Assembly (NCBI GenBank): GCA_965207035.1
Contig: OZ242259.1
Span: 586,111 to 650,110, forward strand
DNA: 64,000 nt
Origin: Bryobacterales bacterium
GTDB lineage: Bacteria; Acidobacteriota; Terriglobia; Bryobacterales; UBA6623
Direction of reading: 5' to 3'
In this document: piece after piece, positions 5,471-46,583 of the stretch
How the letters are laid out: each line of letters starts with the position of its first letter
How positions within the stretch are numbered: the first letter of the stretch is position 1
The notes under the pieces: generated by a model
What the model saw: only the letters and a program-made list of their open reading frames with translations
What the model was told of the DNA's origin: nothing
The model's database searches: none
Made by a program: the position numbers and the translations under genes

Positions 5471-5615
5471 GTGCTCGCCGGAGCGGGGCCGGGACGCAGC
5501 GCCACCGCGGAGTTCGTTGTTCTCTTCCGGGTTGCATCAAGCGTCGGTTTGGGTGTCAGGCATGGTCCGAGCGTGACCGCGAGGGGTCGGCGTTCCTCGG
5601 TATAATCCGGAAAGG

Positions 5616-10046: not shown

Positions 10047-10096
10047 TACCAAGTATAGGGCCCTAGCAGGATGAGAGGACCGCTCCGCGATGGACG

Positions 10097-11563: not shown

Positions 11564-11612
11564 CGTCTGTGTCTCCGTAGCGTCCTGCAGCCCGCGCAAT
11601 GTCGATAGGCGG

Positions 11613-14600: not shown

Positions 14601-14798
14601 CCGCTTACCGAACAAGCCTTCCTTCCTGTCGAGGCGCAACTCCACCATGCGCGTGGACGGGTCGGGCCCATGGCATTGAAAGCACTTGTCAGCGAGAAGG
14701 GGCCGAACGTCGGCTTGGAATCCCACGGCTGCCGAGACCTGAGGGAGCGCCGCCATGGCCACAAGCAGCCCCGAAACACGATCCCAGCGAACTGTCAT
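11613..14798 (-). CDS. PSCyt1/PSCyt2(DUF1549)/PSD1(DUF1553) protein with internal LamG-like domain
   Basis: Signal peptide, then the planctomycete-type cytochrome motif CFQCHGPD. A central concanavalin/LamG-like block runs from PFSLAFWVRHPDEAG to WRHVTVTYDG. The DUF1553-type C-terminus is long, giving 1061 aa in total. Confidence 0.75.
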   Translation of the reverse strand: MTVRWDRVSGLLVAMAALPQVSAAVGFQADVRPLLADKCFQCHGPDPSTRMVELRLDRKEGLFGKRANGAPVVPGDPAVSLLYQRITHAEPALRMPPEYSHKSLEPEQIQTIRDWIEQGADWSGHWAFEIPKRPSLPAVTDEGWARNPIDRFVLARLEENEIAPAPEADRRVLARRAALDVTGLPPKPEGLASFLNDNEPGAYQRYLDRLFSSEAYGEHRARYWLDAARYADTHGIHIDNYREMWPYRDWVINAFNHNLPFDQFTLEQVAGDLLPDPSLDQLVASGFHRCNATTNEGGVIPEEYEVIYAKDRADTTGTVFLGLTVGCATCHDHKFDPITQRDFYAMTAFFRNTTQYVMDGNISDVPPYIIVPRDEDRERYNNLRESLRETRAQLAEAAAAPGPKFDKWLARRSYGSLESPLQTADAPLQVGTEAVVQDGRSVPLALSAGVDASEGPAENIGALTFEEDGFLEFPPWEIDGSKPFSLAFWVRHPDEAGNYVVASQTDPENKMRGWVVTLGGRQITFKMTATHDDKASNIEIRPNNQYQLEPGSWRHVTVTYDGSGERAGLSIYYNGERMPFQGSEHFARLEGDLAPDRPVLLGRGFYKDDEEIKNRDLAGGGIADFRLYNRELSVEEANVVANWPALELARSKAPAELREDEKRVLGLHYLNVHDQRYRAGFLEAKRSERSIREIRRRGAVTHVMQEKEGSKPTAHILFRGMYDQRREEIPAATPGFLPSLGDDGVVNRLHLAKWLVSEANPLTARVTVNRFWQQLFGTGLVRTSDDFGAQGELPSHPKLLDWLAAEFRERNWDVKALLRTILSSSTYRQSSQADSTKIAKDPENRMLSRGPRFRMDAEMLRDFGLAASGILVERIGGPSVKPYQPDGVWESVAMLGSNTRFYERDEGEKLYRRSLYTFWKRAAPPASMQIFNAPTREHATVRRERTNTPLQALVTMNDPQFVEASRYLAQAAMKQAEPGFPERLGFMTTRLLSRELDAGEQAVAKQSFDEFVGYYQSDKDAADRLLDTGEYPIDSSLPRTSLAAWTMMANQLMNLDEALNK

Positions 14799-14957
14799 TC
14801 AGCCACATTATATATGCCTACAAGGTCCAGCCTCGCCGTGATTGGACCGCGGCGGCGCATGATCGCGGTCCCCACCCATGTCAGGGAGCCGCTATCGCGT
14901 GAAGCGGAGGCTCCGCGGTCAGTCAATGCCTGTTTGCGCTCGCTAGAATCGAATGCA

Positions 14958-17942: not shown

Positions 17943-18415
17943 CCGGAGGGATCTCCGGTGCGTGCGTCCCGTGTGCGGAGTGCGAATTCGTGTCCTCCAG
18001 CCGCCGTATTCGGTGAGATCGCTCTCGTCACTCGAATAAGCCGTCGCGCGGACCAACCGGCACGGTGAGTCAAGGGGCCTCATTCTGATCTCATGCTGAT
18101 TGCGACCTTTCAATCGGGTGTGTCAGCCGTACCAGCAAATGGCTGGCAACCAAGATCCAGTGGGTCCTTGGTCGGGGCTGAACGCCACTGCGAATGAAGC
18201 CGCGCCCGATGGGCCCCAACGCACATCGAGTTGGGTTCGCTTCGCCGACGGGTTTCCGTGGTGCCCATGGTACCTGCGAGCCCGGTGCGAGGTCGATCGC
18301 GGATAGTTGTGCTGCTACGGTGCGTTCCGACGGAGGGGGGATCGCACTACATTGGGCTCTGAGCCCGGAGCACCCAGATTTCGGCCCTAGCCAGTTGTGT
18401 GGCTCTTGAGACACA

Positions 18416-19033
18416 ATGACTCCTACGGATTTGTCTTGGATACGCCAGTTGGGTCAATGGATCGCGGGAGCGGCGGCGTTCCTGGGGCCGTGGGGCGTCT
18501 TCGTCATTGCCTTCTCTGACAGCGCGTTCATCCCGATGCCCCAGGGAGTGGACGCATTGCTGTTGGCACAGGCGATTGCCAGTCCCGAGATCGCGTACCT
18601 TGCCGCTGGTCTGGGAGCGCTCGGATCCGTGGTTGGCAGTACCGTGCTGTACTTTCTTGCCCGAGGCGCGGGGCAGGGGCTCTTGCTCAAGCGGCTCTCT
18701 TCGAACGGAATCAACCGGCTCAGCCGGCTCATGGGCAGGTGGGGCGCCGCGCTGTTGATTCCAGTGACCATGATTCCCCTTCCCATGCCGATGAAGCCGG
18801 TGGTTCTGGCTGCGGGCATCTTTCGAATGCCGCTAGTCTCGTTCTGGAGCGCGATCAGCTTCTCGCGGCTGGTCCGCTACTTCGGGATAGCCTTTCTCGG
18901 CATGCAGTATGGCGATCGAGGGCTAGCACTGGCCTTGGAGAACATGCACCTGGCGTTGCTCGGCTGCGGTTGCTTCGTCGCGCTGTTCATTTCAGTGCAC
19001 CGATTCTCCACCCGATGGCTGAACCGTGGGTAG
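18416..19033 (+). CDS. DedA/YqaA-family membrane protein
   Basis: It has about 4-5 TM helices, and FSDSAFIPMPQGVDALLL is typical of the YqaA/SNARE-associated family. Confidence 0.6.
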   Translation: MTPTDLSWIRQLGQWIAGAAAFLGPWGVFVIAFSDSAFIPMPQGVDALLLAQAIASPEIAYLAAGLGALGSVVGSTVLYFLARGAGQGLLLKRLSSNGINRLSRLMGRWGAALLIPVTMIPLPMPMKPVVLAAGIFRMPLVSFWSAISFSRLVRYFGIAFLGMQYGDRGLALALENMHLALLGCGCFVALFISVHRFSTRWLNRG

Positions 19034-34064: not shown

Positions 34065-35204
34065 TCAGTCGATGAGCGCCTGGTATGCCAGAGTCTGAAA
34101 GTCTTGCCGGATGTTGAGGTGCGTGTACGGGCGGATCTGCGTCATGAGAATCCCAATCACCTCGTCGTCCGGGTCGACCCAGAAGACCGTGCAGTAAGCT
34201 CCGCCCCAGCCATAGGTGCCAACAGCGCTTGGCATCCCGCTCGCGCCGAGGTCGGTTGTCACCGAGTAGCCCAGACCGAATCCGAAGCCCGCGCCTCGCA
34301 ACCAGACCGCCTTGTCGCCAGTGTGGTTGGTGGTGATCAGCCGCACGGTTCGCGGTCCGAGAATGCGGACTCCGTCCAGTTCTCCGCCGTTCAGCATCAT
34401 TTGGTGAAAGCGAAAGTAATCGGTTGTCGTCGAAACCAGACCGCCCCCTGCGCTGAAATACACATGCGGTTCACTGACCCATCGGCTGTTTTCGTCGGGC
34501 CTCTCCGCCAGTTCGATCTTGCCTCCGGCGTCGGGCCGGTACAGGGCTGCGAACCGCGCGAGCTTCGAGCTGGGCATGTAGAAGTGTGTGTCTGTCATTC
34601 CAAGCGGAGTCAGGATCTTTTCCCGAAGATACTGGTCCAATGACATGCCCGAGATGACTTCGATGAGTCGTCCGGCGACATCCGTTGCCGGGCCGTATTC
34701 CCACTTCGCTCCAGGCTCGAAATTGAGTGGAAGCTCCGCCAGCGCCGTGACATAGTCCCCGACTGTGCCCCCCGGCTGGCGGTTCGCACGAACTTCGTTG
34801 TAGAGCGATATCGTGATTCCTCTGTACGGATTGGGTAGGCCCGCGGTGTGGGTCAGCAAGTGTTGAAACGTGATGGGACTCGCAGCGGCGACCCGCTTGA
34901 ACGGGCCGCGGGCGGAGTCCGCTGGCCCGACTGGCACGGCGACATCCATGCCGGCGAACTCTGGCAGGAACTTCGAGATCGGATCTCGAAGCTGGAAGTG
35001 ACCGTTTTCCCACAGCATCATCAGAGCCACCGTGGCGATTGGCTTGGTCATCGAGGCGATCCGGAAGATCACGTCGTTCGACATCGCCGCCTGCGTCTCG
35101 GCGTCCCTGTATCCGAAGCTTCGGTGGTACACGACGTTCCCCGAACGGGCGATCAGGGCAACCACTCCTGGCACTTCACGGCGGTCGACGTACCCCTGCA
35201 GCAT
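34065..35204 (-). CDS. beta-lactamase-family serine hydrolase, 5'-truncated by island insertion (reading frame continues without a start codon up to TAG at 35277-35279)
   Basis: SxxK motif ASMTKP and class-C/PBP4*-like colinearity. The conserved N-terminal segment PESAGFSSVRLEHVDR is encoded upstream of the first ATG (35204). It has no ATG/GTG/TTG before it and is closed by a TAG at the att core. Confidence 0.8.
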   Translation of the reverse strand: MLQGYVDRREVPGVVALIARSGNVVYHRSFGYRDAETQAAMSNDVIFRIASMTKPIATVALMMLWENGHFQLRDPISKFLPEFAGMDVAVPVGPADSARGPFKRVAAASPITFQHLLTHTAGLPNPYRGITISLYNEVRANRQPGGTVGDYVTALAELPLNFEPGAKWEYGPATDVAGRLIEVISGMSLDQYLREKILTPLGMTDTHFYMPSSKLARFAALYRPDAGGKIELAERPDENSRWVSEPHVYFSAGGGLVSTTTDYFRFHQMMLNGGELDGVRILGPRTVRLITTNHTGDKAVWLRGAGFGFGLGYSVTTDLGASGMPSAVGTYGWGGAYCTVFWVDPDDEVIGILMTQIRPYTHLNIRQDFQTLAYQALID

Positions 35205-35270
35205 TCGGTCGACGTGTTCGAGCCTTACGGACGAGAAGCCTGCGGATTCTGGCTCTCCCAGGACCGCAGG

Positions 35271-35277
35271 GGCGGCC
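35271..35277. repeat. attL core (GGCGGCC)
   Basis: It is identical to 44296-44302. The extended similarity is CCGCAGGGGCGGCCTAAGCGGTACTGAG (35264-35291) against CCGCATAGGCGGCCAAGGCGGCACTGGC (44289-44316). Confidence 0.6.
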
Positions 35278-35448
35278 TAAGCGGTACTGAGGCGCTCGGA
35301 GACCCCATTATCAGACCAATTGTCTTTTAACTCACTGGTACTAATAGACTTATGGTCATATAAGGCGAGCATGGCCCGAGGCTTCCCGTTCCTAAAATAC
35401 CTCCGGTCTGCTAGTAAAACGTGGGGTATATCGTGATACGCTGGAGCC

Positions 35449-36633
35449 ATGGCAAGCATTCTTAACGCTCGATCCTGCAAGGCGGCGAGGCCAACACCGG
35501 GCCAGCGATTCACCTACTACGGAGACGGCCTCGGGCATGGCCTCCGCCTCCGCGTCGCTCAATCCGGCGCGAAGTATTGGGAGCAACGGCTCACGGTCAA
35601 CGGCAAGCGGCGGGACCTTGGCCTCGGGCCGTTCCCGGAGATTGACCTAGACGCGGCGCGGGAGCTTGCCCTAGACAACAAGCGGACGGCCCGCAAGGGC
35701 GGGAACCCGCTGGCGAATAGCATCACGTTCCGGGAGGCCAGCGACGCTTGCACGGCCCTTGACGCTGCGAGTTGGAAAACAGACAAGCAACGGCGGGACG
35801 CGGAGGCCATGATGGACCGATGGGCGCTGCCTCGCCTCGGGGCCGTCAAGGTTGCCGCGATCAACCGGGGGGACGTCATGGACGCGCTAGAGCCTATCTG
35901 GATTGATCGGGCAGCGACGGCCAAGCGGGTCCTACAGCGGCTCTCCCGCGTGTTCGATTACTGCGTGGGCCGGGGTTACCGCGACGACAACCCGGCGGAC
36001 GTGGCGATCATGACAGCGGCGCTCCCAAAGCAACCGAAAGCGACGAACGGCAACGGCAACGGCAACGGGGCGGCGCGGCATCATGAGGCCGTCCCCTATG
36101 CGGAGCTTGCCGACGCGCTGGCCAAGGTGGACGCCTCCAGTTCGGGCGCGACCGTCAAGGCGCTGGTCCGCTTTACGGCCCTCACGGCTGCCCGGATCGG
36201 GGAGGCGCGGGGCGCTCAGTGGTCCGAGATTGACCTAGACGGCGCGGTCTGGACGATTCCAGCGGATCGCATGAAGGGCGGGCGGGAGCATCGCGTCCCG
36301 CTGGCCGATGCGGCTGTGGCGATCCTCCGCCAACAGCTTGCCATCCGGCCCCGGCGCTGCCCGTTCGTGTTCACTGGCACGGCAGGGCGGACTATCGGGG
36401 AGGGAACAGTCCGTAAGCTGTTCCGGTCGCTCCAGACCATCGGGGACCCTCACGGCCTACGCTCCAGCTTCCGCGATTGGGCGGCAGAGAATACCGAGGC
36501 CCCCCGCGAAGTGCTGGAGACGTGCCTAGCGCATGTTGTCGGCGGCAAGGTCGAGCGGGCCTATGCACGGACGGACCTGCTGGACAAGCGGCGGGCCGTC
36601 ATGGACGCTTGGGCCGACTATCTGGCCCGCTGA
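35449..36633 (+). CDS. int: tyrosine-type site-specific integrase (P4/CP4-57-like, DUF4102 N-domain)
   Basis: N-terminus YYGDGLGHGLRLRVAQSGAKYWEQRLTVNGKRRDLGLGPFPEIDLDAARE. Catalytic region ARIGEARGAQWSEID, HRVPL, HGLRSSFRDWAAE and ERAYARTD (R..HxxR..Y). Confidence 0.9.
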   Translation: MASILNARSCKAARPTPGQRFTYYGDGLGHGLRLRVAQSGAKYWEQRLTVNGKRRDLGLGPFPEIDLDAARELALDNKRTARKGGNPLANSITFREASDACTALDAASWKTDKQRRDAEAMMDRWALPRLGAVKVAAINRGDVMDALEPIWIDRAATAKRVLQRLSRVFDYCVGRGYRDDNPADVAIMTAALPKQPKATNGNGNGNGAARHHEAVPYAELADALAKVDASSSGATVKALVRFTALTAARIGEARGAQWSEIDLDGAVWTIPADRMKGGREHRVPLADAAVAILRQQLAIRPRRCPFVFTGTAGRTIGEGTVRKLFRSLQTIGDPHGLRSSFRDWAAENTEAPREVLETCLAHVVGGKVERAYARTDLLDKRRAVMDAWADYLAR

Positions 36634-36653
36634 CACTCAGGACGGTCCCACAG

Positions 36654-36689
36654 CGGCCCCCGGAGCCAATCTGACGGCCTCGGGGGCCG
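36654..36689 (+). terminator. possible stem-loop after int
   Basis: CGGCCCCCG (36654-36662) pairs with CGGGGGCCG (36681-36689) around an 18-nt loop, followed by TTCGTG. The loop is large and the U-tract poor, so this is weak. Confidence 0.25.
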
Positions 36690-36835
36690 TTCGTGCGTCT
36701 AGGGGTCCGGGAGCGATTGGCGGCGAGTACAGCGTCTTGGCAGAGCACGCGAGGCCCCAGTCGCTCCCGGTTCGGGCGATCCTCGCGGTAATGGTCTTCG
36801 CCCCGAGGATCGGCCCGAGCCTCCAGAGTACCCCC

Positions 36836-36881
36836 GATTGGCGATGGCGGGCAGTGATTGGCGATGGCGGGCAGTGATCGG
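36836..36881 (+). repeat. tandem 20-bp repeat pair, set 1 (GATTGGCGATGGCGGGCAGT x2 + GATCGG)
   Basis: Perfect tandem copies at 36836-36855 and 36856-36875. The whole ~46-bp block recurs at 37386-37431. Confidence 0.9.
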
Positions 36882-36941
36882 CCCCGGCCAATCGGAGGCG
36901 CAGTCTACCCCAATGGACGGCGGAGCGGGTCCGGGGTGGAC

Positions 36942-37301
36942 CTAGCTCTTAGGTCCAGACCGCAGCGCCTCGGCGGTGTGCGTCAACAGGATTGTCCGGC
37001 TGTCCAAGTATGGGGCGGGGTTGGCCTCGCGTTCGGCTTCCATTAACCCCAGACGGGCGCTATGCCAAGCGACTGATCCGTACCGTACCGTGTCCGATCG
37101 GTTCCCGGATGCCCTGACAATCCAATGCAGCAGTCGTATCAGGGGCGATGGCAGTCTCGTCTCTTGTAACCGTCTCGCCATGGCCCCAGAGGCAATGTCA
37201 TGAGGGCCGACGGTGGGAGACGCTGCCGTCATGCGGACGCCTCCGGGGGAACGGCGAGACGCGCTGACGTTGACCTGTGCTAAGTTGGGGGTCTGGGTCA
37301 T
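36942..37301 (-). CDS. hypothetical protein between the two repeat sets (possible island regulator; coding status uncertain)
   Basis: This is the only non-low-complexity ORF in 36.64-37.85 kb. An internal ATG would give a 79-aa product starting MARRLQETRLPSPLIRLLHW. There is no clear SD and no recognisable domain. Confidence 0.25.
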   Translation of the reverse strand: MTQTPNLAQVNVSASRRSPGGVRMTAASPTVGPHDIASGAMARRLQETRLPSPLIRLLHWIVRASGNRSDTVRYGSVAWHSARLGLMEAEREANPAPYLDSRTILLTHTAEALRSGPKS

Positions 37302-37385
37302 GGCGGGGCTTCGCCTTTGATCCTTGACGCCTCGGAGCTTGGGTCAGTTCCGGGGCGTTTTCATTGATCGCCTCCAGCTTACCTC

Positions 37386-37431
37386 GATTGGCGATGGCGG
37401 GCAGTGATCGGCGATGGCGGGCAGTGATCCG
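37386..37431 (+). repeat. tandem 20-bp repeat pair, set 2 (GATTGGCGATGGCGGGCAGT, GATCGGCGATGGCGGGCAGT, GATCCGG)
   Basis: It is a direct repeat of set 1, 550 bp downstream and in the same orientation. Confidence 0.9.
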
Positions 37432-37439
37432 GCCCCCTG

Positions 37440-37600
37440 CCGCAAGACCCCCCGGCCCGTCCCGCAAGACCCGTCCCGCTAGACCCCTCCCCTGCCGCAA
37501 GACCCGTCCCCTGCCCGTGGGGGGGGGGGGAGGGTGTGTCAACATGGCACACCCTCCCCGGCCCCCGGCCCCCTGCCGTTAGACCCCTGCCGCTAGACCC
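37440..37600 (+). repeat. array of six direct CCG(C/T)(A/T)AGACCC 11-mers flanking a G12 tract and a 12-bp inverted repeat
   Basis: The 11-mers lie at 37440, 37462, 37476, 37495, 37576 and 37590. The G12 tract is at 37519-37530. GGGGAGGGTGTG (37527-37538) and CACACCCTCCCC (37548-37559) are perfect inverted arms with a 9-nt spacer. Confidence 0.9.
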
Positions 37601-37628
37601 CTCCCCGTCCCGGTCCCCTCCCGGTCCC

Positions 37629-37688
37629 GATCCGTCCCGATCCGTCCCGATCCCTCCCCGATCCGTCCCGATCCGTCCCCGATCCGGG
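37629..37688 (+). repeat. tandem decamer array GATCCGTCCC (about 5.5 units, two 11-nt variants)
   Basis: Read directly from the sequence: gatccgtccc gatccgtccc gatccctcccc gatccgtccc gatccgtcccc gatccggg. Confidence 0.9.
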
Positions 37689-37782
37689 CAAAACGGACCT
37701 TGGGGACCCCTGCCCCGGACCCGCTCAGGGTAGAGCAGCGTAGCGGCTTAGGGACGAGCTAACACACCCCCACGGGGGGCCG

Positions 37783-37834
37783 GATTCCCCATAACCGCGT
37801 GTGGGGAATCACTGACGGCCATTTGGCCGTCAAT
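37783..37834 (+). promoter_or_regulatory. composite control element upstream of terL: 9-bp-stem inverted repeat + 20-bp palindrome TGACGGCCATTTGGCCGTCA
   Basis: GATTCCCCA (37783-37791) and TGGGGAATC (37802-37810) form the inverted repeat. The palindrome is at 37813-37832 and ends 26 nt before the terL ATG. The palindrome recurs at 39753-39772 and 44109-44128. Confidence 0.6.
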
Positions 37835-37858
37835 TTCGGGCCGGGGCGAGCCTGAGAT

Positions 37859-39424
37859 ATGGGAACCCCCAACACGGCCTCCGCGCTGATCCGCTACCTA
37901 GAGACGCTGACCTGCACTCAGGGCCAAGGTGCGGGCGATCCGCTGGAGGTCCTGCCGTGGCAGCGGCGGTTTATCAGGGGCGCATTCTCGGGGCCGGGGG
38001 ACGCGGCCCTGAGCGTGGCAAGGGGGAACGGCAAGACAACGCTGCTGGCCGGGGTCGCTGCTGCGTTCGTGAATGGCCCGCTCAGGCAGCCTCGGGCGGA
38101 GGTTGTGATCATCGCGGCCAGCTTGGCTCAGGGCAAAATTTCGTTTTCCCACACGCGGGCATTCTTGGAGGCGAGCGGTTGCGACCTGACGGCGCGCAAG
38201 CTGTGGAAATGCCACGACGGCGTCAATAGTGCGAGCATCGAGCATCGGCCCTCGGGGTCCCGCGTTCGGGTTATCGGATCGGACCCCAAGCGGGCGCACG
38301 GTCTGGCCCCCGCGCTGATCCTCGCCGATGAACCCGCGCAATGGCCCCCCAACACGGCTGAGGCCATGGTCGCGGCCCTCAAGACCGCTCGGGGCAAGAT
38401 TCCCGGCGCGAAGATGATCGCGCTAGGGACGCGGCCAGCGGAACCCGATCATTGGTATCAGCGGATGCTAGACGGGCAGGGCGTCAGCTACGCGCAATCC
38501 CATGCGGTCCCCTCCGGGACCGGGGACGCGATGCTCGGGCAGCGTGGATTTTGGCGCAAGGCGAATCCGTCGCTCGGGTTCATGCCAGACCTAGAGGCCG
38601 CGATCCGGGACGAATGGTCAACGGCCAGCAGGGACCCGTCGCTGCTGGCCTCATTCAAGGCATTACGCCTGAATATGGGGGTCCCGGACGTTCTGGCCTC
38701 AAGCCTACTGGAGGCGGAGACGTGGCGGCGCATCGAGGCCCCGGAGGGCCAAGGCGTCGAGCGGCGCGGGCCGTGGGCGCTCGGGGTCGATTTGGGCAGT
38801 ACAGCGGCCATGTCTGCCGTGGCGGGGTACTGGCCCGAGACGGGCGCATTGACGGCCCTTGCTTGCTTCCCGGCAGACCCTCCGCTGGCGGATCGGGGAC
38901 GGCAGGATGGGGTCGCTGACCTGTACGTCCGCATGGCGGAGCGGGGCGAGTTGATTATAGCGGGGCGCTACGTCTCGGAGGTCCCCGCGCTGTTGCGGGA
39001 GGTTGTGGACCGATGGGGGGTCCCGGACGTGATTGTCTCGGATCGCTGGAGGCTCGGGGAATTGCGGCAAGCATTGGAGGCGGCAGGTATGCCCAGGACG
39101 GCCCTTGCCACGCGGGGGCAGGGGTACTTTGACGGCGGGGCGGACGTGCGGGAGTTCCGTAAACAGTGCGCCTCGTTGGCCGTGCGGCCTGACGTTTCGC
39201 TGCTGCTGCGGGCCGCGATGGCGGAGGCCCGCGTTCAGACTGACGCGGCTGCTAACGCGAAGCTGGCGAAGGGTTCCGAGGGGGGACGGCGGCGGCGGGC
39301 GAGGGATGACGCGGCGGCGGCTGCGATCCTCGCAGTAGCGGAGGGGACCCGTAGGGCCGGGACCGGGACCGGGACCGGGGACAGCGACGGGACCCCACGG
39401 CGGAGGCTGCGAGTATGCGCGTAG
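37859..39424 (+). CDS. terL: phage terminase large subunit
   Basis: Walker A context SVARGNGKTTLLAG and a Walker B-like LILADEPAQW. The C-terminal nuclease-half length is typical of the Terminase_1 family. Total 521 aa. Confidence 0.8.
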   Translation: MGTPNTASALIRYLETLTCTQGQGAGDPLEVLPWQRRFIRGAFSGPGDAALSVARGNGKTTLLAGVAAAFVNGPLRQPRAEVVIIAASLAQGKISFSHTRAFLEASGCDLTARKLWKCHDGVNSASIEHRPSGSRVRVIGSDPKRAHGLAPALILADEPAQWPPNTAEAMVAALKTARGKIPGAKMIALGTRPAEPDHWYQRMLDGQGVSYAQSHAVPSGTGDAMLGQRGFWRKANPSLGFMPDLEAAIRDEWSTASRDPSLLASFKALRLNMGVPDVLASSLLEAETWRRIEAPEGQGVERRGPWALGVDLGSTAAMSAVAGYWPETGALTALACFPADPPLADRGRQDGVADLYVRMAERGELIIAGRYVSEVPALLREVVDRWGVPDVIVSDRWRLGELRQALEAAGMPRTALATRGQGYFDGGADVREFRKQCASLAVRPDVSLLLRAAMAEARVQTDAAANAKLAKGSEGGRRRRARDDAAAAAILAVAEGTRRAGTGTGTGDSDGTPRRRLRVCA

Positions 39425-39732
39425 GCTCAGGGCAACCGCTTACAGGGAATCCACGGCCCCTGTATCGGCCAGACCTGCACGGGCGGCGCTGGCAAGCGAT
39501 CCGGCGGGCCGTGCTGCTGCGGGACCGCTACCGCTGTAGAGTGTGCCTTCGGGCGGCGAGGCTCGAAGTTGACCATATCCGGCCCATCCGGCAGGGCGGC
39601 GAGGCGTGGAACCTAGCGAACCTCCAGACCCTCTGCCGTGGCTGCCACATTGACAAGACACGGCGCGAGAATACCGGGCGGAGGCGCAACCGCTTGCCTC
39701 CCGGATGGGACGCGCTGCTGCTGGAATTGTAG
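39415..39732 (+). CDS. HNH endonuclease
   Basis: CRVCLRAARLEVDHIRPIRQGGEAWNLANLQTLCRGCHIDKT is an H-N-H motif with CxxC pairs. It overlaps the terL stop by 10 nt. Confidence 0.85.
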   Translation: MRVGSGQPLTGNPRPLYRPDLHGRRWQAIRRAVLLRDRYRCRVCLRAARLEVDHIRPIRQGGEAWNLANLQTLCRGCHIDKTRRENTGRRRNRLPPGWDALLLEL

Positions 39733-39752
39733 GACCCGCTTGGCCCGTTTAC

Positions 39753-39772
39753 TGACGGCCATTTGCCCGTCA
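39753..39772 (+). promoter_or_regulatory. second copy of island palindrome (TGACGGCCATTTGCCCGTCA) upstream of capsid gene
   Basis: It has one mismatch to the perfect palindrome and shares the flanks ACTGACGG...CGTCAAT. It ends 40 nt before the capsid ATG at 39813. Confidence 0.55.
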
Positions 39773-39812
39773 ATCGAGGGCCGCTGATACCGTGAGGCTT
39801 GGAGGTTGCCTG

Positions 39813-41066
39813 ATGACTAACAGACAACGCTTGGAGCTACGATCCTCAGAGATTCGCAGCCGCTTGAATGAGATCGCGGGCCTAGAATCCGAGGCCCTAA
39901 CGGATGAGATTCGCAGCGAATCGGACAAGCTGCAAGGCGAGTATCGGGGCGTCGAGACTCAGCTACGCGCTGCCATTCTGGCGGAGGGCGGAGACGGCAA
40001 GGGGGGCGATGGTTCCCCACAACCGCGTGTGGGCAATGACGGGAACCCCGAGGCCCCCGAGGATCGGGAGCTACGCTCCCTGATCGGCAAGGCGTCGCTG
40101 GCAAGCATCGCTGACGCGGCGCTAGAGCAGCGCAGCACGGACGGCGCGGAGGCGGAGCTACAGCAGCACTTGGGGCTAGGGCCGTCTCAGGTCCCCGTCG
40201 AGTTGCTGCGAGGCGATCCGCTCCCGGAGGCGCTGGAGACGCGGGCCGTAACTCCCGCACCGGCTGATACTGGCGTCTCGCAAGCGGCGATCATTCCCTA
40301 TCTGTTCCCGCGTTCGGCGGGCGCATATCTCGGGGTCAGCAACCCCACGGTCCCCGTAGGGGAGCGGCTGTTTCCCGTGCTGACTACCCCGGCAACGGTC
40401 CACGCTCCGGCCAAGGATGCGGACGCGGCGGAGACTACGGGCAGCTTCGCCACAACGGCCCTGAAACCGGCGCGGCTGCAAGCTGAGTTCTTTTTTAATC
40501 GGGAAGATTTGGCGACGTTCGCCGGAATGGAGGCCGCGCTGCGCCAGAATCTCGGGGACGCGCTGGCCGACGCGCTGGACGGCAAGATCATAGGGCAATT
40601 CTTCGCGGCCTCGGGGGGTCTGGCGAACCCCACGAACCCCACGGCAGAGGCTACGTTTTCGACCTATCGCGGCCAGCTATTCGGAGGCATTGATGGGCGC
40701 TACGCCAACACGGCGGCTGACCTGCGCTGGCTGGTCAACAGCGACACATACAAGCATCTTGCCTCGAAGTATCGCGGCAACACTGCCGACGATTCGGCCC
40801 TCGATTCGCTCATGCGCGTCTCGGGCGGGGTCCGCGTCTCAACGCACATTCCGGCCAAGGCGGGCAACGTCAGCGGGTTCCTAGCGTCCAAGGCGGGCGC
40901 ACGCGGCCAGAATGCGGTCGCTCCGGTCTGGCAGGGGGTCAGCCTGATCCGCGACGAATTCACCAAGGCCGACCGGGGTCAGATTCGCTTGATCGCGGTC
41001 ATGCTCTACAGCGTGGCAATTCTCAGGGCCGATGGATTCCAGCGGCTCGAAGTTCACACGGGTTGA
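39813..41066 (+). CDS. phage major capsid protein, HK97 family
   Basis: GGAGG at 39801-39805, then ATG 39813. N-terminal coiled-coil delta-like region (RQRLELRSSEIRSRLNEIAGLE...). The C-terminal part ...WQGVSLIRDEFTKADRGQIRLIAVMLYSVAILRADGF is typical of HK97-fold MCPs. Confidence 0.8.
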   Translation: MTNRQRLELRSSEIRSRLNEIAGLESEALTDEIRSESDKLQGEYRGVETQLRAAILAEGGDGKGGDGSPQPRVGNDGNPEAPEDRELRSLIGKASLASIADAALEQRSTDGAEAELQQHLGLGPSQVPVELLRGDPLPEALETRAVTPAPADTGVSQAAIIPYLFPRSAGAYLGVSNPTVPVGERLFPVLTTPATVHAPAKDADAAETTGSFATTALKPARLQAEFFFNREDLATFAGMEAALRQNLGDALADALDGKIIGQFFAASGGLANPTNPTAEATFSTYRGQLFGGIDGRYANTAADLRWLVNSDTYKHLASKYRGNTADDSALDSLMRVSGGVRVSTHIPAKAGNVSGFLASKAGARGQNAVAPVWQGVSLIRDEFTKADRGQIRLIAVMLYSVAILRADGFQRLEVHTG

Positions 41067-41092
41067 TGGATAACCCGTGCGGAGACTGACGG

Positions 41093-41707
41093 ATGGAACG
41101 GCTAGAAACTGGCGATGCTTTTGTCCTGAGCGTCCCTGAGCTTGAAATCCGGCGGGGTAGGGGCGGCGGCGGCGGGGCGGGTCGATACGTCCTTGGCCGC
41201 TTCCCCTACGGAGTCACGGCAACGATACGGGACCGGGGACGCCTCCGCAAGGAACGGTTTGGGGTCAAGGCGTTCGCTCGGGCAATCGAGCGGGCGGAGG
41301 AGGAGATTAACCTCTTGGCCGGTCACAATTTCGGCCAGCCGCTGGCCTCCAAACGGGCCGGGTCGCTGAAGCTGGACGATACCCCCGAGGCCCTGACATT
41401 CGAGGCCAAGCTGCCCGACAAGGGGCCGTCATGGATTGAGGATACGGTTCTGGCGCTGGAGGCCGGGTTGGCCGTGGGCGTCTCGCCGGGATTCCGTGTG
41501 CCTCCGCTCAACGTGGTCCCGGACGCGGAGGTCGAGGTCCCGGAACCCGGCAATCCGGGGGTGTTTATCCGGCAGATCAATCAAGCCATGCTTTACGAGT
41601 TGTCCATCGTGACGCGACCCGCTTACAGCGCCTCCAGCGCGGAGGTCGAGGCGCGGGCCGTTGCGTACAGCTTCGCCGATCCTGAGCGGAGGCGGCTATG
41701 GCTGTAA
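41093..41707 (+). CDS. HK97-family prohead protease
   Basis: YGVTATIRDRG...ERFGVKAFARAIE....INLLAGHNFGQPLA...L.LDDTPEALTFEAKLPD matches the S78/U35 prohead protease layout (conserved H in the LxxH block). It lies adjacent to the capsid gene. Confidence 0.65.
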   Translation: MERLETGDAFVLSVPELEIRRGRGGGGGAGRYVLGRFPYGVTATIRDRGRLRKERFGVKAFARAIERAEEEINLLAGHNFGQPLASKRAGSLKLDDTPEALTFEAKLPDKGPSWIEDTVLALEAGLAVGVSPGFRVPPLNVVPDAEVEVPEPGNPGVFIRQINQAMLYELSIVTRPAYSASSAEVEARAVAYSFADPERRRLWL

Positions 41708-42030
41708 TGGACCTAGCGGCGCTGTATGAGGCCGTCACGCTCAACGCGGGGCCTCCAAGCGGCCCCGAGGCTGCCCGCTGGGAGTCGCTGTATGCGGGTG
41801 CCTGGGCGATTATTGACAGGTATGCTCCCGAGGCCCCCGAGGGCGTCAAGAATGAGGCGCTAGTCCGTTTCGCGGGGTACGCGGCGGACGTGCAAGGCGT
41901 CACTAAAGAGGCCATCGGGGAGCAGTCGGTAGAGTACACGGACCGCACGTCCCCGGCAGTATTCAGGCGATCCGGCGCGATGGGGTTGCTGTCCCCGTGG
42001 AAACGGCGGCGGGCCGGGAGGATCGGCTGA
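41698..42030 (+). CDS. gp6-like head-tail connector (adaptor) protein
   Basis: 110 aa, overlapping the protease stop. The ...AGAWAIIDRYAPEAPEGVKNEALVRFAGY... pattern is typical of the phage gp6-like head-tail connector family. Confidence 0.55.
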   Translation: MAVMDLAALYEAVTLNAGPPSGPEAARWESLYAGAWAIIDRYAPEAPEGVKNEALVRFAGYAADVQGVTKEAIGEQSVEYTDRTSPAVFRRSGAMGLLSPWKRRRAGRIG

Positions 42031-43088
42031 TGCGCTGGCCGTGGCAACGCTCCGAGGCCGACGCGCTGGAGACCCGCGACGCTGACTACAGCGACGCGAT
42101 AGTCGGGCAGATTCTACGCAACGCTACGGGCGGGGAACCCGCAAGCATGTACGCGCTGGCCGCGCTGGAGGCGGCGGCGGGAATCGTGGGGCGATCCTTC
42201 GCCGTTGCGTCCGTCCAGTCGGCCTCGGGTCTGGTAACGGAGGCGCTGCCCCCCTCCCTGCTGGCCCTGATCGGTCGCTCCCTGATCCGGCGCGGGCAGC
42301 TTGTCTGTAGCATCGAGACGACGGGCGGACGCCTTGCGCTGCTGCCCGCTGCAAGTTGGGACGTCCAAGGCGGGCCAGACCCTCGAAGCTGGCAGTACCG
42401 CCTCGAATTGGGGGGACCCTCGGGCAGCGTCACGCGGCGCAATCCGGGCGAGGGCGTGATAGACCTGAGGTATAGCTGCGATCCGGCGCAACCATGGCGC
42501 GGCCTCGGGCCGCTACAGGTTGCGAGGCTAGACGGGCGGCTAGGTTCCGAGTTGGCGGCGGCGCTCGGAGACGAGGCGGCAGGGCCTCGGGGTTCGCTGC
42601 TGCCCGTACCGGGCGAGGGCGGAGACGGGGAATTAGACGAGCTACGGGCCGATATCGCGGGGTTGCACGGCAAGGCGGCGCTGCTGGAAACCACTAGCGG
42701 CGGATGGGGCGAGGGCAAGGGCGCGGCCCCTCAGCAGGATTGGACGCCTAAGCGGCTCGGGCCGAATCCTAGCGCGGCGCTGGTACAGCTCCGCCGGGAC
42801 GTTGAAACGTCCGTGGTTGCCGCGTGTGGCGTCCCGCTGGAATTGCTGACTCCGGCTGCTGGAACAGGCGGACGCGAATCTTACAGACGCTTCCTATTCT
42901 CGACTGTGGCCGCGCTCGGGCGCATCGTTGCGGACGAATTGACCCGCAAGCTGGAGACGCCAGTATCGCTCGACTGGGGCGAGCTACGGGCGGCGGATAT
43001 CTCGGGACGGGCGAGGGCCTACCAGTCGCTAGTCGGGGCCAACATGGACGCCTCCAAGGCGGAGCGACTGGCGGGTCTGCTGGAGTAG
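42030..43088 (+). CDS. phage portal protein (HK97 family, short form)
   Basis: TGATG overlap with the adaptor stop (42028-42032). The central and C-terminal regions ...RESYRRFLFSTVAALGRIVADELTRKL... are portal-like. Confidence 0.65.
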   Translation: MRWPWQRSEADALETRDADYSDAIVGQILRNATGGEPASMYALAALEAAAGIVGRSFAVASVQSASGLVTEALPPSLLALIGRSLIRRGQLVCSIETTGGRLALLPAASWDVQGGPDPRSWQYRLELGGPSGSVTRRNPGEGVIDLRYSCDPAQPWRGLGPLQVARLDGRLGSELAAALGDEAAGPRGSLLPVPGEGGDGELDELRADIAGLHGKAALLETTSGGWGEGKGAAPQQDWTPKRLGPNPSAALVQLRRDVETSVVAACGVPLELLTPAAGTGGRESYRRFLFSTVAALGRIVADELTRKLETPVSLDWGELRAADISGRARAYQSLVGANMDASKAERLAGLLE

Positions 43089-43104
43089 ATAGGGGGTAAC
43101 TGGG

Positions 43105-43425
43105 ATGCACTCAAACTGCTGTATCACCTGCGGGGCGTCGCTGGCAGGGTTCCGCTCAAATCGGAGATTCTGCGAGCCTTGCATGGTGCGATGGAATCGC
43201 GAGAGGAAAGGCCCCTACGACCGGGAGCGGCGGGCGCGGGAGCGGGAGCTACGCGGCAAGCGGACGTGTGCTGGTCTTGGCTGCGAGGTCGATATCACGA
43301 ACACGCACGGCAGGACCCTCCGCTGTCCCGATTGTGCGCGGGAGCGGGCGCTGGAGGGGAACCGGCGGAGTAGCGCACGATGGGCGGCGCGTAAGCGGGA
43401 GCGGGCAGCCAAGCGGGCAGCCTAG
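43105..43425 (+). CDS. Arg-rich double zinc-ribbon protein (106 aa), function unknown
   Basis: Two Cys pairs per half: CCITCG...CEPC and CAGLGC...CPDC. A strongly basic RERRARERELRGKR linker and tail suggest nucleic-acid binding. Confidence 0.55.
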   Translation: MHSNCCITCGASLAGFRSNRRFCEPCMVRWNRERKGPYDRERRARERELRGKRTCAGLGCEVDITNTHGRTLRCPDCARERALEGNRRSSARWAARKRERAAKRAA

Positions 43426-44069
43426 CGGGCCTCGCGGGCCTCGGCAAGGTTGATCCTCGCCTCCCATCCCTGAGCGGACAGCGACGGGGCGCACGTGCGG
43501 GCCTCGCGGCCCTCCCTGACGCGATCCTTGACGGCGGCTGCCCAATTGCCCGATACCTGAGCGACGGCCCCGGCCAGCGTCTCCAGCAGGGCGTCCAGTT
43601 CGGCTGCCTCCAGTTCGGCTGCCTCTAGGTATTCGATGGCCCCGCTCAGGAGGCCGTCAAACCTCCAGCTTGCGCGGCTGCCGTCCCCGAATTCGGACGC
43701 GGCAACCTCCGGGGCGAGGCGGCGGAGTTCCACGGCCCCGGCCAGCAGTTCGTCGGGCGAGCGAATCAGGCGCGGCGCTAGGAATGCGCGAGCCTCCAGC
43801 AGTCGGCCTAGGGCGTCCCGCTCCATGGCGTCGAGGCGATCCGAGACTCCCCGGCCAATCGGGGCGCTGCCCCGGATGCGCGCCAACAGCGACCGCTCCG
43901 GGCCATCGTAAAGCGTCTCGGCCTCGACTAGTTCCGGCGGATCGCTCGGGGCAGGGTCCCGCAGCACGGTAGCGCAGCGTTCCCCCGTCTCCGCATCGTG
44001 CCAGCATCGCAGCGTGAGGCGCGGCGTGGGGTGCAGGTCAATGTCCATGATCCGGTTTGTAGTGAACAT
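43422..44069 (-). CDS. hypothetical protein, reverse-oriented island gene
   Basis: ORF 43422-44180 (TTG). The ATG at 44069 (MFTTNRIMDIDLH...) is preferred because it leaves the palindrome at 44109-44128 in the upstream region. The protein is helical and acidic, with no recognisable domain. Confidence 0.5.
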   Translation of the reverse strand: MFTTNRIMDIDLHPTPRLTLRCWHDAETGERCATVLRDPAPSDPPELVEAETLYDGPERSLLARIRGSAPIGRGVSDRLDAMERDALGRLLEARAFLAPRLIRSPDELLAGAVELRRLAPEVAASEFGDGSRASWRFDGLLSGAIEYLEAAELEAAELDALLETLAGAVAQVSGNWAAAVKDRVREGREARTCAPSLSAQGWEARINLAEAREAR

Positions 44070-44108
44070 GCCCAACAGTGTATCGCGGGGCCTCGGGGCC
44101 TCGGGGAT

Positions 44109-44158
44109 TGACGGGCATATGGCCGTCAGTGATTCGGGACAACCGCGTGAGGGGAACC
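44109..44158 (-). promoter_or_regulatory. third copy of island palindrome (TGACGGGCATATGGCCGTCA) plus flanking AACCGCGTG module
   Basis: The palindrome is at 44109-44128, 39 nt upstream of the minus-strand ATG at 44069. The adjacent GATTCGGGACAACCGCGTGAGGGGAACC matches 22/28 with the module at 37783-37810. Confidence 0.55.
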
Positions 44159-44295
44159 CGCTACTCCCGAAAACGTGCAAGATGGGCGGTTTTTTTTGGT
44201 GTGGGGGCGTGTGGGGTATCGGGGTCCCCGGTACTCTCCCGAATAGGACCCTAAACTATTGATTTATAAAGACCTTAGAGGCCATATCCCGCATA

Positions 44296-44302
44296 GGCGG
44301 CC
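44296..44302. repeat. attR core (GGCGGCC)
   Basis: See attL. On the minus strand, this core is codon-aligned (GCC GCC) in both the orphan 5' fragment and the truncated hydrolase body. Confidence 0.6.
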
Positions 44303-44373
44303 AAGGCGGCACTGGCAAGAACACTCCCGGCAACAGCGGCGGCCGCCATGAGTCGTGGGATCGCGCGGAGCAT
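44296..44373 (-). pseudogene. orphaned 5' end (start codon + signal peptide) of the split serine hydrolase gene
   Basis: The minus-strand ATG at 44373 is preceded by GAGAGGA. It encodes MLRAIPRLMAAAAVAGSVLASAALAA up to the core, then runs into island DNA (YAGYGL, stop at 44275-44277). Confidence 0.7.
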
Positions 44374-44536: not shown

Positions 44537-44579
44537 ATGCTGCGATTTGGAATCGTCGTCTTGGGGTGGGTTCCCCTAG
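44537..44579 (+). pseudogene. orphaned 5' end (start + most of signal peptide) of the IS-disrupted sulfatase gene
   Basis: ATG 44537 encodes MLRFGIVVLGWVPL, then the IS begins at 44580. Continuing at 46555 gives ...VASAAPNILFVMSDDH in frame. Confidence 0.7.
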
Positions 44580-46550
44580 CGGTAGTTTACGGGCTTTCGT
44601 CGCTGTCGTGGGGGTAGGGCCCGCGAAGTGATTCCATCCACAGCAGTTACCAGTCGGCGCTCCATCCTCTTTTGTATTACCCTATATGAGATTCTGGATC
44701 AATTCCTTTGAGAATTGCTTGCATTCGCTTCCATGGTGTTCTAGTATTACCCTATATGGCATCCATCGTCGGCAAGAAAAAGGGCAACCAAACCTACTAC
44801 TACGTCGTCACCTCCGGCCGCGTCAACGGCAAGCCCCGCATCACCCACCAAACCTACCTCGGTACCGCCGATCGACTCGCCCAACTCGTCCGCGACAAGG
44901 CCGCCCCCATCCCTCTCGAGGCCACGGCCCGCGACGCCGGCCTCCCGGTCGCCCTCTGGCAGGCCGCCCAACTCTCCGGCACCCTCGACGCCCTCCTCTC
45001 CGTCTGGCCCGCCCCTAAACGCGGCCCCTCCATCCCCCATTTCCTGCTCCTCGCTGCCTTCCACCGCATCTGCGCACCAGGCCCCAAGACCGAGGTCGCC
45101 GACTGGTACCGCCACTCCGTCCTCGCCGACCTGTGGGGCTTCGCCCCCAGCCTCTTCTCCTCCCAGGCCTTCTGGGACCATTTCGACGCCATCGACGTCA
45201 GCGCGGCGCTCACCGAGCCCTCCTCTGACGAACTCGAGCAGGCCCAGCTGGCCCTGCTGCAGGCCTTCCGCGCCCGCGACCTCGTCAGCCAACGCGTGCT
45301 GGCCTACGACACCACCAATTTCCACACCTGGATCGGCACCACCAACACCCGCAACCAACTCGCCCAGCGCGGACACAACAAGCAGAAGCGCCACGACCTG
45401 CGCCAGATCGGCCTCAGCTACGCCCTCGACGGGCAGCACGGCCTCAGCCTGTGTCATCACGTCTACCCGGGCAACGTCACCGACCGCGACGAGTTGCCGG
45501 CCTGCCTCGGGCGCATCACGCGCCTGCTCGACGGGGCGTCGATTCCGCGCGAGACGGTCACACTGGTGTTGGACAAGGGCAGCGCGGCGCTGGCCAACAC
45601 CCTGGCCCTGCAGGCCAGCGGGCTGGGCTGGATCGCAGCGCTGCCGTGGGACCAGGCCCCGGCCGCGCTGCGCTCGCGTGCGGTCGAGGAGTTGGCCGCG
45701 GTGCCTGGCGAGCCCGGCCTGCGGGTCGGGTCCGAGCGCACCCTGGTGCACGGGGCCGAGTATCTGGGCGTGCTCCGGCATTCGGCGGGTTTCGCCGCCG
45801 AACAGTTCCAGAGCGTGACCCTGTCGCTGGCGAAGGCGACGCAGAAGCTGCGGGCCCTCGCGCGGGAGATCGGCCAGCCCCGGGACCGGCACACGGAACA
45901 GGGCTTGCGCAACCGGATCCAGCGCTGGCTGCGGCCGAACTTCGTTTCGCAGGCGCTGAGTTACACGCTGCGGCGCGGCGCGGACCGCAGTTGGGACCTG
46001 CAGTTCGCGATCGACGCGGAGGCGCTGCACCGGCTGTTGACCGAGCGCTTCGGGCGGACCACGCTGGTAACCAACCGGCTGGACTGGAGCGCGGCCGAAG
46101 TGGCCACGGCCTACAACGGCCAGCAGCACGTGGAGCGCGTGTTCCGCGGCCTCAAAGGCGGGGACTGGCTGGGATGGGGGCCGCTGCACCACTGGACCGA
46201 CAGCAAGATCCGGGTGCATGCGTTTTACTGCCTGTTGGGGGTGTCGCTGATGCAGTACCTGTACCAGCAGGCACAGGCTGCGTGGCCGCTGTTGACCATG
46301 GAAGGGCTCAAGCACGAACTGGGGCAGATCCAGCGCATCGACCTGCTGTATCCGCCGCTGGGGGCGAAGGGACCGCCGCGGGTGGCGACCATCACGTCGA
46401 AGCAGACATTGACCCAAGCGGCCCTGGTGTCCGAACTGGGATTGGAGAAGCTGCTCAAGACCGACGGTAGGTAATACAGCCAGCCCACACCTAACTGACT
46501 CTGAGCCAGTACGTTACAACTATTTTTCCTTCAACTTCAGTAAACTACCG
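44580..46550 (+). mobile_element. insertion sequence, 1,971 bp, 11-bp perfect terminal IRs (CGGTAGTTTAC), 4-bp CTAG target duplication
   Basis: IRL 44580-44590 and IRR 46540-46550 (GTAAACTACCG). CTAG lies at 44576-44579 and 46551-46554. It carries a single DDE transposase ORF. Confidence 0.8.
44756..46474 (+). CDS. DDE transposase, IS4-superfamily (IS1634-like)
   Basis: The N-terminus MASIVGKKKGNQTYYYVVTSGRVNGKPRITHQTYLGT resembles the IS1634-family N-terminal pattern. 572 aa. The 556-aa antisense ORF is GC shadow. Family assignment is tentative. Confidence 0.75.
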   Translation: MASIVGKKKGNQTYYYVVTSGRVNGKPRITHQTYLGTADRLAQLVRDKAAPIPLEATARDAGLPVALWQAAQLSGTLDALLSVWPAPKRGPSIPHFLLLAAFHRICAPGPKTEVADWYRHSVLADLWGFAPSLFSSQAFWDHFDAIDVSAALTEPSSDELEQAQLALLQAFRARDLVSQRVLAYDTTNFHTWIGTTNTRNQLAQRGHNKQKRHDLRQIGLSYALDGQHGLSLCHHVYPGNVTDRDELPACLGRITRLLDGASIPRETVTLVLDKGSAALANTLALQASGLGWIAALPWDQAPAALRSRAVEELAAVPGEPGLRVGSERTLVHGAEYLGVLRHSAGFAAEQFQSVTLSLAKATQKLRALAREIGQPRDRHTEQGLRNRIQRWLRPNFVSQALSYTLRRGADRSWDLQFAIDAEALHRLLTERFGRTTLVTNRLDWSAAEVATAYNGQQHVERVFRGLKGGDWLGWGPLHHWTDSKIRVHAFYCLLGVSLMQYLYQQAQAAWPLLTMEGLKHELGQIQRIDLLYPPLGAKGPPRVATITSKQTLTQAALVSELGLEKLLKTDGR

Positions 46551-46583
46551 CTAGTTGCGTCGGCCGCTCCCAACATCCTCTTC

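Follow-up and report, generated by a model that had tools for sequence, protein, structure and literature searches.

How a gene for a beta-lactamase-family serine hydrolase came to lack its start, and why a short open reading frame (ORF) 9 kb away appears to supply it, are the questions raised by a 64,000-nt stretch (the window) of contig OZ242259.1 from a Bryobacterales bacterium of the Acidobacteriota (assembly GCA_965207035.1, positions 586,111 to 650,110; coordinates below count from the first base of the window). We consider it highly probable that a 9.0-kb element, the island, was inserted here by its integrase and split the hydrolase gene, and that this element is most likely a satellite of the capsid-forming phage-inducible chromosomal island (cf-PICI) type. 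For the insertion event itself, and for the recombination core described below, the evidence leaves practically no doubt.

The longest hydrolase ORF with a start codon (34065-35204, minus strand, 379 aa) matches PF00144 with an E-value of 3.9e-70. Upstream of its ATG at 35204 the frame stays open for a further 24 codons (35205-35276), reading AAPAVLGEPESAGFSSVRLEHVDR without any ATG, GTG or TTG, and is closed by an island-side TAG at 35279-35277. On the same strand an ORF starts at 44373, encodes MLRAIPRLMAAAAVAGSVLASAALAA down to 44296, and then reads into island DNA for six codons (YAGYGL) before a TAA, i.e., 32 aa in all (44275-44373). Both features had been pointed out in the original prediction and were reproduced, as was the heptamer GGCGGCC (GGCCGCC on the minus strand) found on both sides. 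Its two copies (minus strand 35277-35271 and 44302-44296) are in the same codon phase, and 35264-35291 matches 44289-44316 at 21 of 28 positions. When the fragment starting at 44373 and the frame at 35270 were joined across GGCCGCC, a 427-aa protein was obtained, in which the start-less extension accounts for residues 25-48 and the 379-aa ORF for residues 49-427. The joined full-length ORF, with a signal peptide followed by the hydrolase N-terminus, had thus been correctly foreseen, but its length is 427 aa and not the 403 aa given at the time. The first 26 residues contain two Arg, a hydrophobic stretch (residues 8-24) and an ALAA end, and by inspection are a typical Sec signal peptide. As had also been proposed, island sequence does not repair the gene: the island TAG abuts the core, whose base 35277 doubles as the G of this stop codon, and the orphaned 5′ fragment ends six codons into the island. 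Because the island provides no substitute 5′ end, and the promoter, the start codon and the signal peptide have been lost, the hydrolase gene is most probably non-functional.

An intact counterpart of the joined ORF exists. A metagenomic protein of exactly 427 aa (P0001) is 100% identical to it with 100% coverage, so that both the first 26 residues and the extension are found unchanged, and a second protein (P0002), a 98% match, is annotated as a Bryobacterales serine hydrolase. Among the best 120 homologues of the joined protein, 118 are at least 414 aa long and 41 are exactly 427 aa. The homologues inspected (P0001-P0040) do not start at the Met equivalent to that of 35204, but align with it colinearly across both the signal peptide and the PESAGFS..RLE..LQGYVDR segment, except for the start call of P0009. 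This N-terminal colinearity was judged by direct inspection; a strict motif search by regular expression matched 48 of the 120, which is an under-count. P0009 (379 aa, in locus L002) was considered as a second interrupted allele and rejected, since L002 has no insert and its N-terminal frame is open and colinear, the gene caller having picked a later ATG. Within the 90%-identity cluster of P0001, to which the 379-aa ORF of the window (P0244) also belongs, the intact 427-aa form is represented by six members, distributed over at least 15 contigs. The truncated form was present on the source contig (6.08 Mb) only, the one that also carries the island integrase and the large terminase subunit (TerL).

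Uninterrupted alleles were also found at the level of the locus. In L001 the hydrolase gene lies between the same neighbours as in the window, a sulfatase and a DUF3604 protein, with 99.8-99.9% nucleotide identity to the window flanks on both sides and without the 9,025-bp insert. Its positions 2507-2532 align to both island junctions, the start-less extension is unchanged there, and the junction is exactly as had been predicted. Four more empty loci (L003-L006) are ~99% identical and have one base different in the B arm. In-silico removal of 9,025 bp from the window regenerated the intact P0001/L001 sequence exactly. The interval 35278-44295, which is absent from all five empty loci, is therefore taken as the island DNA between the core copies, and the mobile unit, including one core, measures 9,025 bp. 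The GC content of the island is 0.63-0.71 vs ~0.60 in the flanks.

The crossover point could be fixed to the base. When attL, attR and the empty site were aligned with one another, the empty site agreed with the 44-kb junction as far as GGCCGCC and, from this 7-mer on, with the 35-kb junction. On either side of the 7-mer, the adjoining host bases are not those of the island, and only GGCCGCC is common to attL, attR and attB; therefore, the crossover took place within those 7 bp. This agrees with the claim that attL lies inside the 5′ end of the hydrolase gene and has a 7-bp core. Copy 1 of the core (overlap), at the integrase-proximal junction, occupies 35271-35277, and copy 2, at the integrase-distal junction, 44296-44302. 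The junction sequences are ...ACCGCTTAGGCCGCCCCTGCGG for attL, ...GCCGCCTTGGCCGCCTATGCGG for attR, ...GCCGCCTTGGCCGCCCCTGCGG for attB and, as predicted, ...ACCGCTTAGGCCGCCTATGCGG for attP, and the junction of an excised circle would read ...ACCGCTTAGGCCGCCTATGCGGGAT.... The reconstructed attP core, CCGCTTAGGCCGCCTATGCGG (CCGCTTA-GGCCGCC-TATGCGG), is self-complementary at 18 of 21 positions and centred on the 7-bp core. The attB site, CCGCCTT-GGCCGCC-CCTGCGG, retains CCGC..GGCCGCC..GCGG and is located in hydrolase codons 24-26, at the Ala-Leu-Ala-Ala end of the signal peptide. Two inverted core-type sites bracket an overlap region, an arrangement that, as read from the sequence, is the classical one.

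A 7-bp direct repeat is formally compatible with a target-site duplication left by transposition, and a free attP was not found in IMG/VR. The 7-mer by itself carries little significance, with 17 GGCCGCC sites in the window. Its context does: the flank match of the core pair (14/21) is the maximum among the 136 pairs of GGCCGCC sites, the next best being 11, so that island and host flanks are alike well beyond the repeat, in a palindromic arrangement of core-type site, overlap and inverted core-type site. Furthermore, the element has neither a transposase nor terminal inverted repeats. An insertion sequence (IS) in the immediate neighbourhood offers a comparison, since it shows inverted repeats and a CTAG duplication but no flank similarity. 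Finally, an integrase with arm-binding and catalytic domains is encoded 170 bp from the junction. A duplication by transposition is therefore extremely unlikely.

This integrase (35449-36633, plus strand, 394 aa) is a P4-type tyrosine integrase (phrog_1, E 2.6e-52) with an Arm-DNA-bind_3 domain (PF13356, E 8.2e-15), a Phage_int_M domain (PF22022, E 2.5e-17) and the catalytic domain (PF00589, E 2.9e-16). Its motifs ARIGE, MKGGREHRVPL, HGLR, LAHV and RAYAR are, by eye, consistent with the R, K, HxxR, H and Y set. Candidate arm-type integrase sites were also identified. The motif GTGGGGTA has three copies in the 64 kb, two of which flank the core in the same orientation (plus strand), at 35421-35428 in the P arm and at 44211-44218 in the P′ arm, and it is present in both arms of the closest relative of the island, the element in locus L088 (integrase 65% identical). 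The stretch around the P′ arm site (44160-44218) and the L088 arm have 79% identity.

From these data we infer that the integrase catalysed the recombination at this site. In the proposed course of events, the DNA of 35278-44295 would have entered by conservative site-specific recombination, the near-palindromic attP core recombining with a look-alike attB in the signal-peptide codons of the hydrolase gene. Strand exchange in the 7-bp overlap would have left the promoter at 44.3 kb, together with the start codon and the 26 codons of the signal peptide, and the codons of the mature enzyme at 35.2 kb behind the island TAG, with the gene inactivated and not repaired. Precise excision would restore the gene exactly.

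The choice of a protein-coding target bears on the lineage of the integrase. Like the P4-type (DUF4102/Arm-DNA-bind_3) integrases of tRNA-linked islands and satellites, the island integrase has the same domain architecture and catalytic motifs, and the identical core at its junctions is short and lies between imperfect core-type sites in inverted orientation. Unlike in those elements, no tRNA adjoins the island integrase or its closest relatives, which are 65%, 60% and 56% identical; the 60%-identical one abuts a PhoD-like phosphatase gene. The L088 element (~9.2 kb, 9796-18994) splits a 315-aa alpha/beta-hydrolase gene at codons 97-99 (FDYRGWG|SSD). The reconstructed target has many 315-aa homologues with 90-94% identity and full coverage, and locus L097, from the same metagenome sample, contains the empty site (1788-1795), where the flanks overlap on ATGGGGCA. 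Recombination inside protein-coding sequence is thus demonstrated by empty sites for two integrases, and the L088 core, ATGGGGCA(G), is unrelated to GGCCGCC. The genome of the window itself appears to carry an intact orthologue of the L088 target (P0260, on the source contig).

More distant relatives conform to the expectation, stated beforehand, that P4-type integrases usually sit at tRNA genes. A scan of JGI metagenome contigs with the integrase returned relatives of only ~40% identity and did not find the same element. Among 40 loci with ~40%-identical integrases (L007-L079), 11 have a tRNA, mostly tRNA-Ser, within ~350 nt upstream of the integrase gene, and in a further seven (L007, L010, L015, L016, L024, L060 and L064) a tRNA-Ser lies on the opposite strand, 8-11 kb from the integrase gene. 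The latter arrangement may point to further tRNA-Ser elements of about this size, and in a tblastn screen of all loci collected, L060 was the only one of the seven in which homologues of the island's head genes were detected. Because the close relatives have no tRNA and the ~40% relatives lie beside tRNA-Ser, the integrase sublineage seems, on this sequence comparison, to have exchanged a tRNA-Ser target for sites within ORFs.

Gene disruption by an integrase is in itself a well-known, ordinary kind of event. The lipase gene geh of Staphylococcus aureus, which encodes another secreted serine hydrolase, is inactivated by phage L54a. In phiSa3int/hlb, phi10403S/comK, SpyCIM1/mutL, skin/sigK and SPbeta/spsM, a tyrosine or serine recombinase inserts the element into an ORF that is restored by precise excision (PMC6597384; PMC13492144). 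The island resembles these prophages and islands of S. aureus (phiSa3int), Listeria (phi10403S), the host of SpyCIM1 and B. subtilis (skin, SPbeta) in that a recombinase inserts it in an ORF, the gene is inactivated and excision would restore it. It differs from them in being a tail-less 9-kb unit, in having the signal-peptide coding region as its target, and in showing no sign of regulated excision.

These precedents (phi10403S/comK and SpyCIM1/mutL; PMC13492144) invite the idea of a regulatory switch ("active lysogeny"), in which conditional excision would turn the hydrolase gene back on. The exact restoration of the ORF in silico, the position of the sister element L088 inside another secreted-hydrolase gene, and the PhoD-like phosphatase gene next to the 60%-identical integrase would all suit such a device. 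The occupied allele is, however, rare (one contig vs at least 15 with intact genes), a pattern more in keeping with an insertion that is recent and probably neutral or costly than with a fixed regulatory device, and there is no sign of conditional excision. In addition, the neighbouring sulfatase gene has been knocked out separately, so that this strain can apparently do without the locus. A switch is very unlikely in our view, and simple insertional inactivation by the integrase remains the preferred account of the hydrolase gene.

The second insertion is a 1,971-bp IS (44580-46550, plus strand) that is not part of the island. It encodes a DDE_Tnp_1 transposase (588-aa ORF, 44708-46474) and has terminal inverted repeats reading CGGTAGTTTAC, and its CTAG target is duplicated. 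With the duplications (44576-46554), it interrupts the divergent sulfatase gene at signal-peptide codons 13-14, and its removal restores the sulfatase N-terminus MLRFGIVVLGWVP|LVASAAP. The IS is single-copy in the window and absent from L001 and L003-L006. Two divergent genes for secreted enzymes, the hydrolase and the sulfatase, with start codons ~163 bp apart, have therefore both been broken at signal-peptide codons by different mobile elements, and both are intact in 99.8%-identical strains. This double knock-out could be coincidental; alternatively, selection on the locus may have been relaxed, or its loss may have been selected for.

What kind of element entered the hydrolase gene was then read from its gene content. 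Downstream of the integrase gene, a compact head module is encoded on the plus strand, consisting of TerL (37859-39424, 521 aa; phrog_9, E 2.3e-58, with a weak match to Pfam TerL_nuclease), an HNH endonuclease (39415-39732, 105 aa; PF01844, E 1.5e-10), a major capsid protein of the Phage_capsid family (39792-41066, 424 aa; PF05065, E 5.8e-5), a prohead serine protease of the S78 family (41093-41707, 204 aa; PF04586, E 2e-15), a conserved 110-aa protein, x110 (41698-42030), and a portal protein (41997-43088, 363 aa as listed; PF04860, E 1.3e-10, above the cut-off). The capsid and portal proteins are 80% and 86% identical, respectively, to those of L088. The capsid protein is placed between the HNH endonuclease and the protease, a position conserved across the element family, and its type comprises 659 cluster representatives at E <= 1e-30. 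The order of the head module, with the portal last, is unusual and is conserved in all family loci; in HK97-like phages the usual order is terminase, portal, protease, capsid. Tail and lysis/holin genes were not detected in the 9-kb island by Pfam and PHROG searches, and host genes resume at both borders.

The x110 protein, orthologues of which share motifs in most family members examined, is a candidate head-tail connector and could be the connector that the module otherwise lacks. Pfam and PHROG scans of six orthologues gave a single weak head-tail adaptor match (E 0.16, in one of the six), and a single-sequence AlphaFold2 model (predicted local distance difference test score, pLDDT, 54.6) had no match in a Foldseek search against BFVD. 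Gp6-like motifs in x110 were considered and dropped, as none of Pfam, PHROG, AlphaFold2 or Foldseek confirmed them. Three further genes complete the island. The conserved 119-aa protein u119 (36942-37301, minus strand) has no Pfam or PHROG match and is 57% identical over 100 aa to a frame of L088. Two others, likewise with no match in Pfam or PHROG, are not common to L088 and were delimited by ORF analysis: zn106, a Cys-rich basic 106-aa protein (43105-43425, plus strand), and u252 (43422-44180, minus strand), a protein of 215-252 aa with no assigned function, for which ATG 44069 is the probable start (215 aa).

The non-coding parts of the island are rich in repeats. The spacer of ~1.2 kb between the integrase and terL genes is mostly non-coding, and its repeat-rich stretch (36836-37686) has no convincing ORF apart from u119, which is flanked on both sides by 20-nt units, GATYGGCGATGGCGGGCAGT, at 36836-36882 and 37386-37429; C-rich tandem arrays of 14 nt and 10 nt follow at 37456-37686. 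This region may be a candidate origin of replication, a packaging site (pac/cos) or a regulator-binding region. A two-hairpin motif, ATTCCCCA-N8-TGGGGAAT, followed by the palindrome TGACGGCCATTTGGCCGTCA, occupies 37781-37834 (plus strand), 27 nt upstream of the terL ATG. An inverted copy lies at 44107-44160, directly upstream of the minus-strand u252, and the 20-bp palindrome occurs alone upstream of the capsid gene, at 39753-39772 (within 39751-39775). All three copies of the palindrome in the window are in the island, 20-40 nt upstream of gene starts. L088 has a related two-hairpin motif (11453-11517), in which the second stem differs on both sides (ACCGCC..GGCGGT). The motif may be a candidate operator or late-promoter control element. 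An Rfam scan of the island and the IS gave no match, a scan for sigma-70 promoters and terminators in 35-38 kb found nothing above the shuffled expectation, and GC3 frame analysis discriminates ORFs poorly in this GC-rich DNA.

The closest functional parallel is provided by the cf-PICIs, whose capsids are self-made and to which helper phages contribute nothing but the tails (PMC10085698; 10.1101/2025.02.11.637232). As in the cf-PICIs EcCIEDL933 and KpCIDSM30104, the integrated element is small, has a tyrosine integrase, encodes TerL, HNH, capsid, protease and portal proteins and has no tail or holin genes. Several differences were apparent: the island measures 9.0 kb and not the median 14 kb; no AlpA-type regulator, primase-replicase, small terminase subunit (TerS) or head-tail adaptor/connector was recognised in it with Pfam and PHROG; its order is TerL-HNH-capsid-protease-x110-portal, with the portal last; and its host belongs to the Acidobacteriota (Bryobacterales). 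The SatelliteFinder definition of cf-PICIs lists 11 core components, accepted types having a minimum of nine and a median size of 14 kb, and they have been reported only in Proteobacteria and Firmicutes (PMC10085698). The island probably works like a cf-PICI but is not classed as one. We regard it as rather likely, on the strength of its gene content, that it leads the life of a capsid-forming satellite, in which case the element would package itself into its own small capsids and a helper phage would supply tails and lysis.

A decayed prophage could look much the same. Under this alternative, a former full-size temperate phage kept its att sites and lost its tail, lysis and replication genes by internal deletion, and the presence of only head genes and an integrase, with no recognised regulator or replication gene, in an element seen in one genome only, would be accounted for. 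The relatives of the island speak against it. The L088 element has the same order (integrase, u119-like, TerL, HNH, capsid, protease, x110, portal) and is 74% identical in nucleotide sequence over 5.3 kb; all six shared genes are full length, with ratios of nonsynonymous to synonymous substitution rates (dN/dS) of 0.15-0.36, and are under purifying selection. The compact TerL-HNH-capsid-protease-x110-portal core, of ~9-10 kb, recurs at different sites and in different phyla (L088, L060, L094, L096 and L093), directly flanked by host genes or tRNAs, although not every gene was detected in every element. Overall, this layout is shared by at least six elements besides the island. L060 is a marine element of ~9.5 kb bounded by tRNA-Ser. 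In L094, from a Dehalococcoidia metagenome-assembled genome, an integrase gene and tRNAs come directly after the portal gene, and in L096 and L093, on Acidobacteriota chromosomes, host genes resume within ~1-2 kb of the portal gene. Moreover, one relative (L110), 11.6 kb long and bearing terminal repeats, is complete. That large prophages should have decayed convergently to an identical 9-kb set is implausible, and we judge a decayed prophage to be unlikely, so that a satellite with its own small capsid remains the preferred reading of the island.

L094 also contains two related integrase genes (4485-5627 and 14316-15452), ~9 kb apart, around one head module. The pair adjoins tRNA-Arg and tRNA-Ala, and may represent tandem elements at one att site.

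Relatives of the family were also found among virome contigs. Twelve IMG/VR contigs (L101-L112, 6.5-11.9 kb) share the order TerL-HNH-capsid-x110-portal, and many of them begin ~200 nt upstream of terL, a common start that may mark a defined end of the genome. One of them, L110, is a complete genome of ~11.6 kb, as judged from its 99-bp terminal repeats. It encodes a replication-initiator-like protein and, between x110 and the portal, an 858-aa ORF of no assigned function, and no integrase homologue was detected in it by tblastn. For L110, both an autonomous virus of miniature size and a satellite of a different type are conceivable.

Several observations weigh against the view that the island is an element of this kind moved by its own integrase. 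The exact attP 25-mer has no match in IMG/VR, and neither an excised circle nor an attP junction turned up; the integrase was seen on one contig only, and the same presumably holds for the element. For both reasons, the island is at present a putatively mobile element. No excisionase-like protein was recognised among the island ORFs (Pfam, PHROG), and the same holds for a repressor, a replication protein, TerS and a head-tail adaptor. With six, at most seven, of the 11 cf-PICI core components, the island falls below the minimum of nine, the PF05065 match of its capsid protein is slightly under the curated cut-off, and no helper phage for it is known. That the hydrolase has lost its function, in turn, is deduced from the separation of the gene from its promoter, its start codon and its signal-peptide codons.

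For genome annotation, the practical point is that what would be listed as a 379-aa "hydrolase" and, 9 kb away, as a 32-aa orphan ORF belongs to a single gene. The locus also offers a clean natural before/after pair for a tyrosine-integrase event, with the empty site, both junctions, the 7-bp overlap and the core known to the base, and this site set makes attP x attB recombination directly testable with synthetic substrates. A P4-type lineage whose two closest members lie in ORFs at unrelated cores is material for studying shifts in target specificity. The newer part is the presence of this element family in the Acidobacteriota, a dominant soil phylum with little-studied mobile elements, to which capsid-encoding, tail-less, satellite-like elements are thereby extended, in a version smaller and simpler than the cf-PICIs described. 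A tentative extension, which we hold to be possible rather than probable, is that these elements form a distinct, undescribed lineage of minimal satellites (~9 kb) that make capsids and occur in Acidobacteriota and Chloroflexota, with an integrase and a permuted head module only, kin to the 7-12 kb "mini" genomes of soil viromes, and with an integrase subclade that switched from tRNA-Ser to secreted-hydrolase genes. If this is true, the lineage would be too small and gene-poor for the cf-PICI definition, having no replicase, TerS or known regulator, and each of its integrations would be a reversible knock-out.

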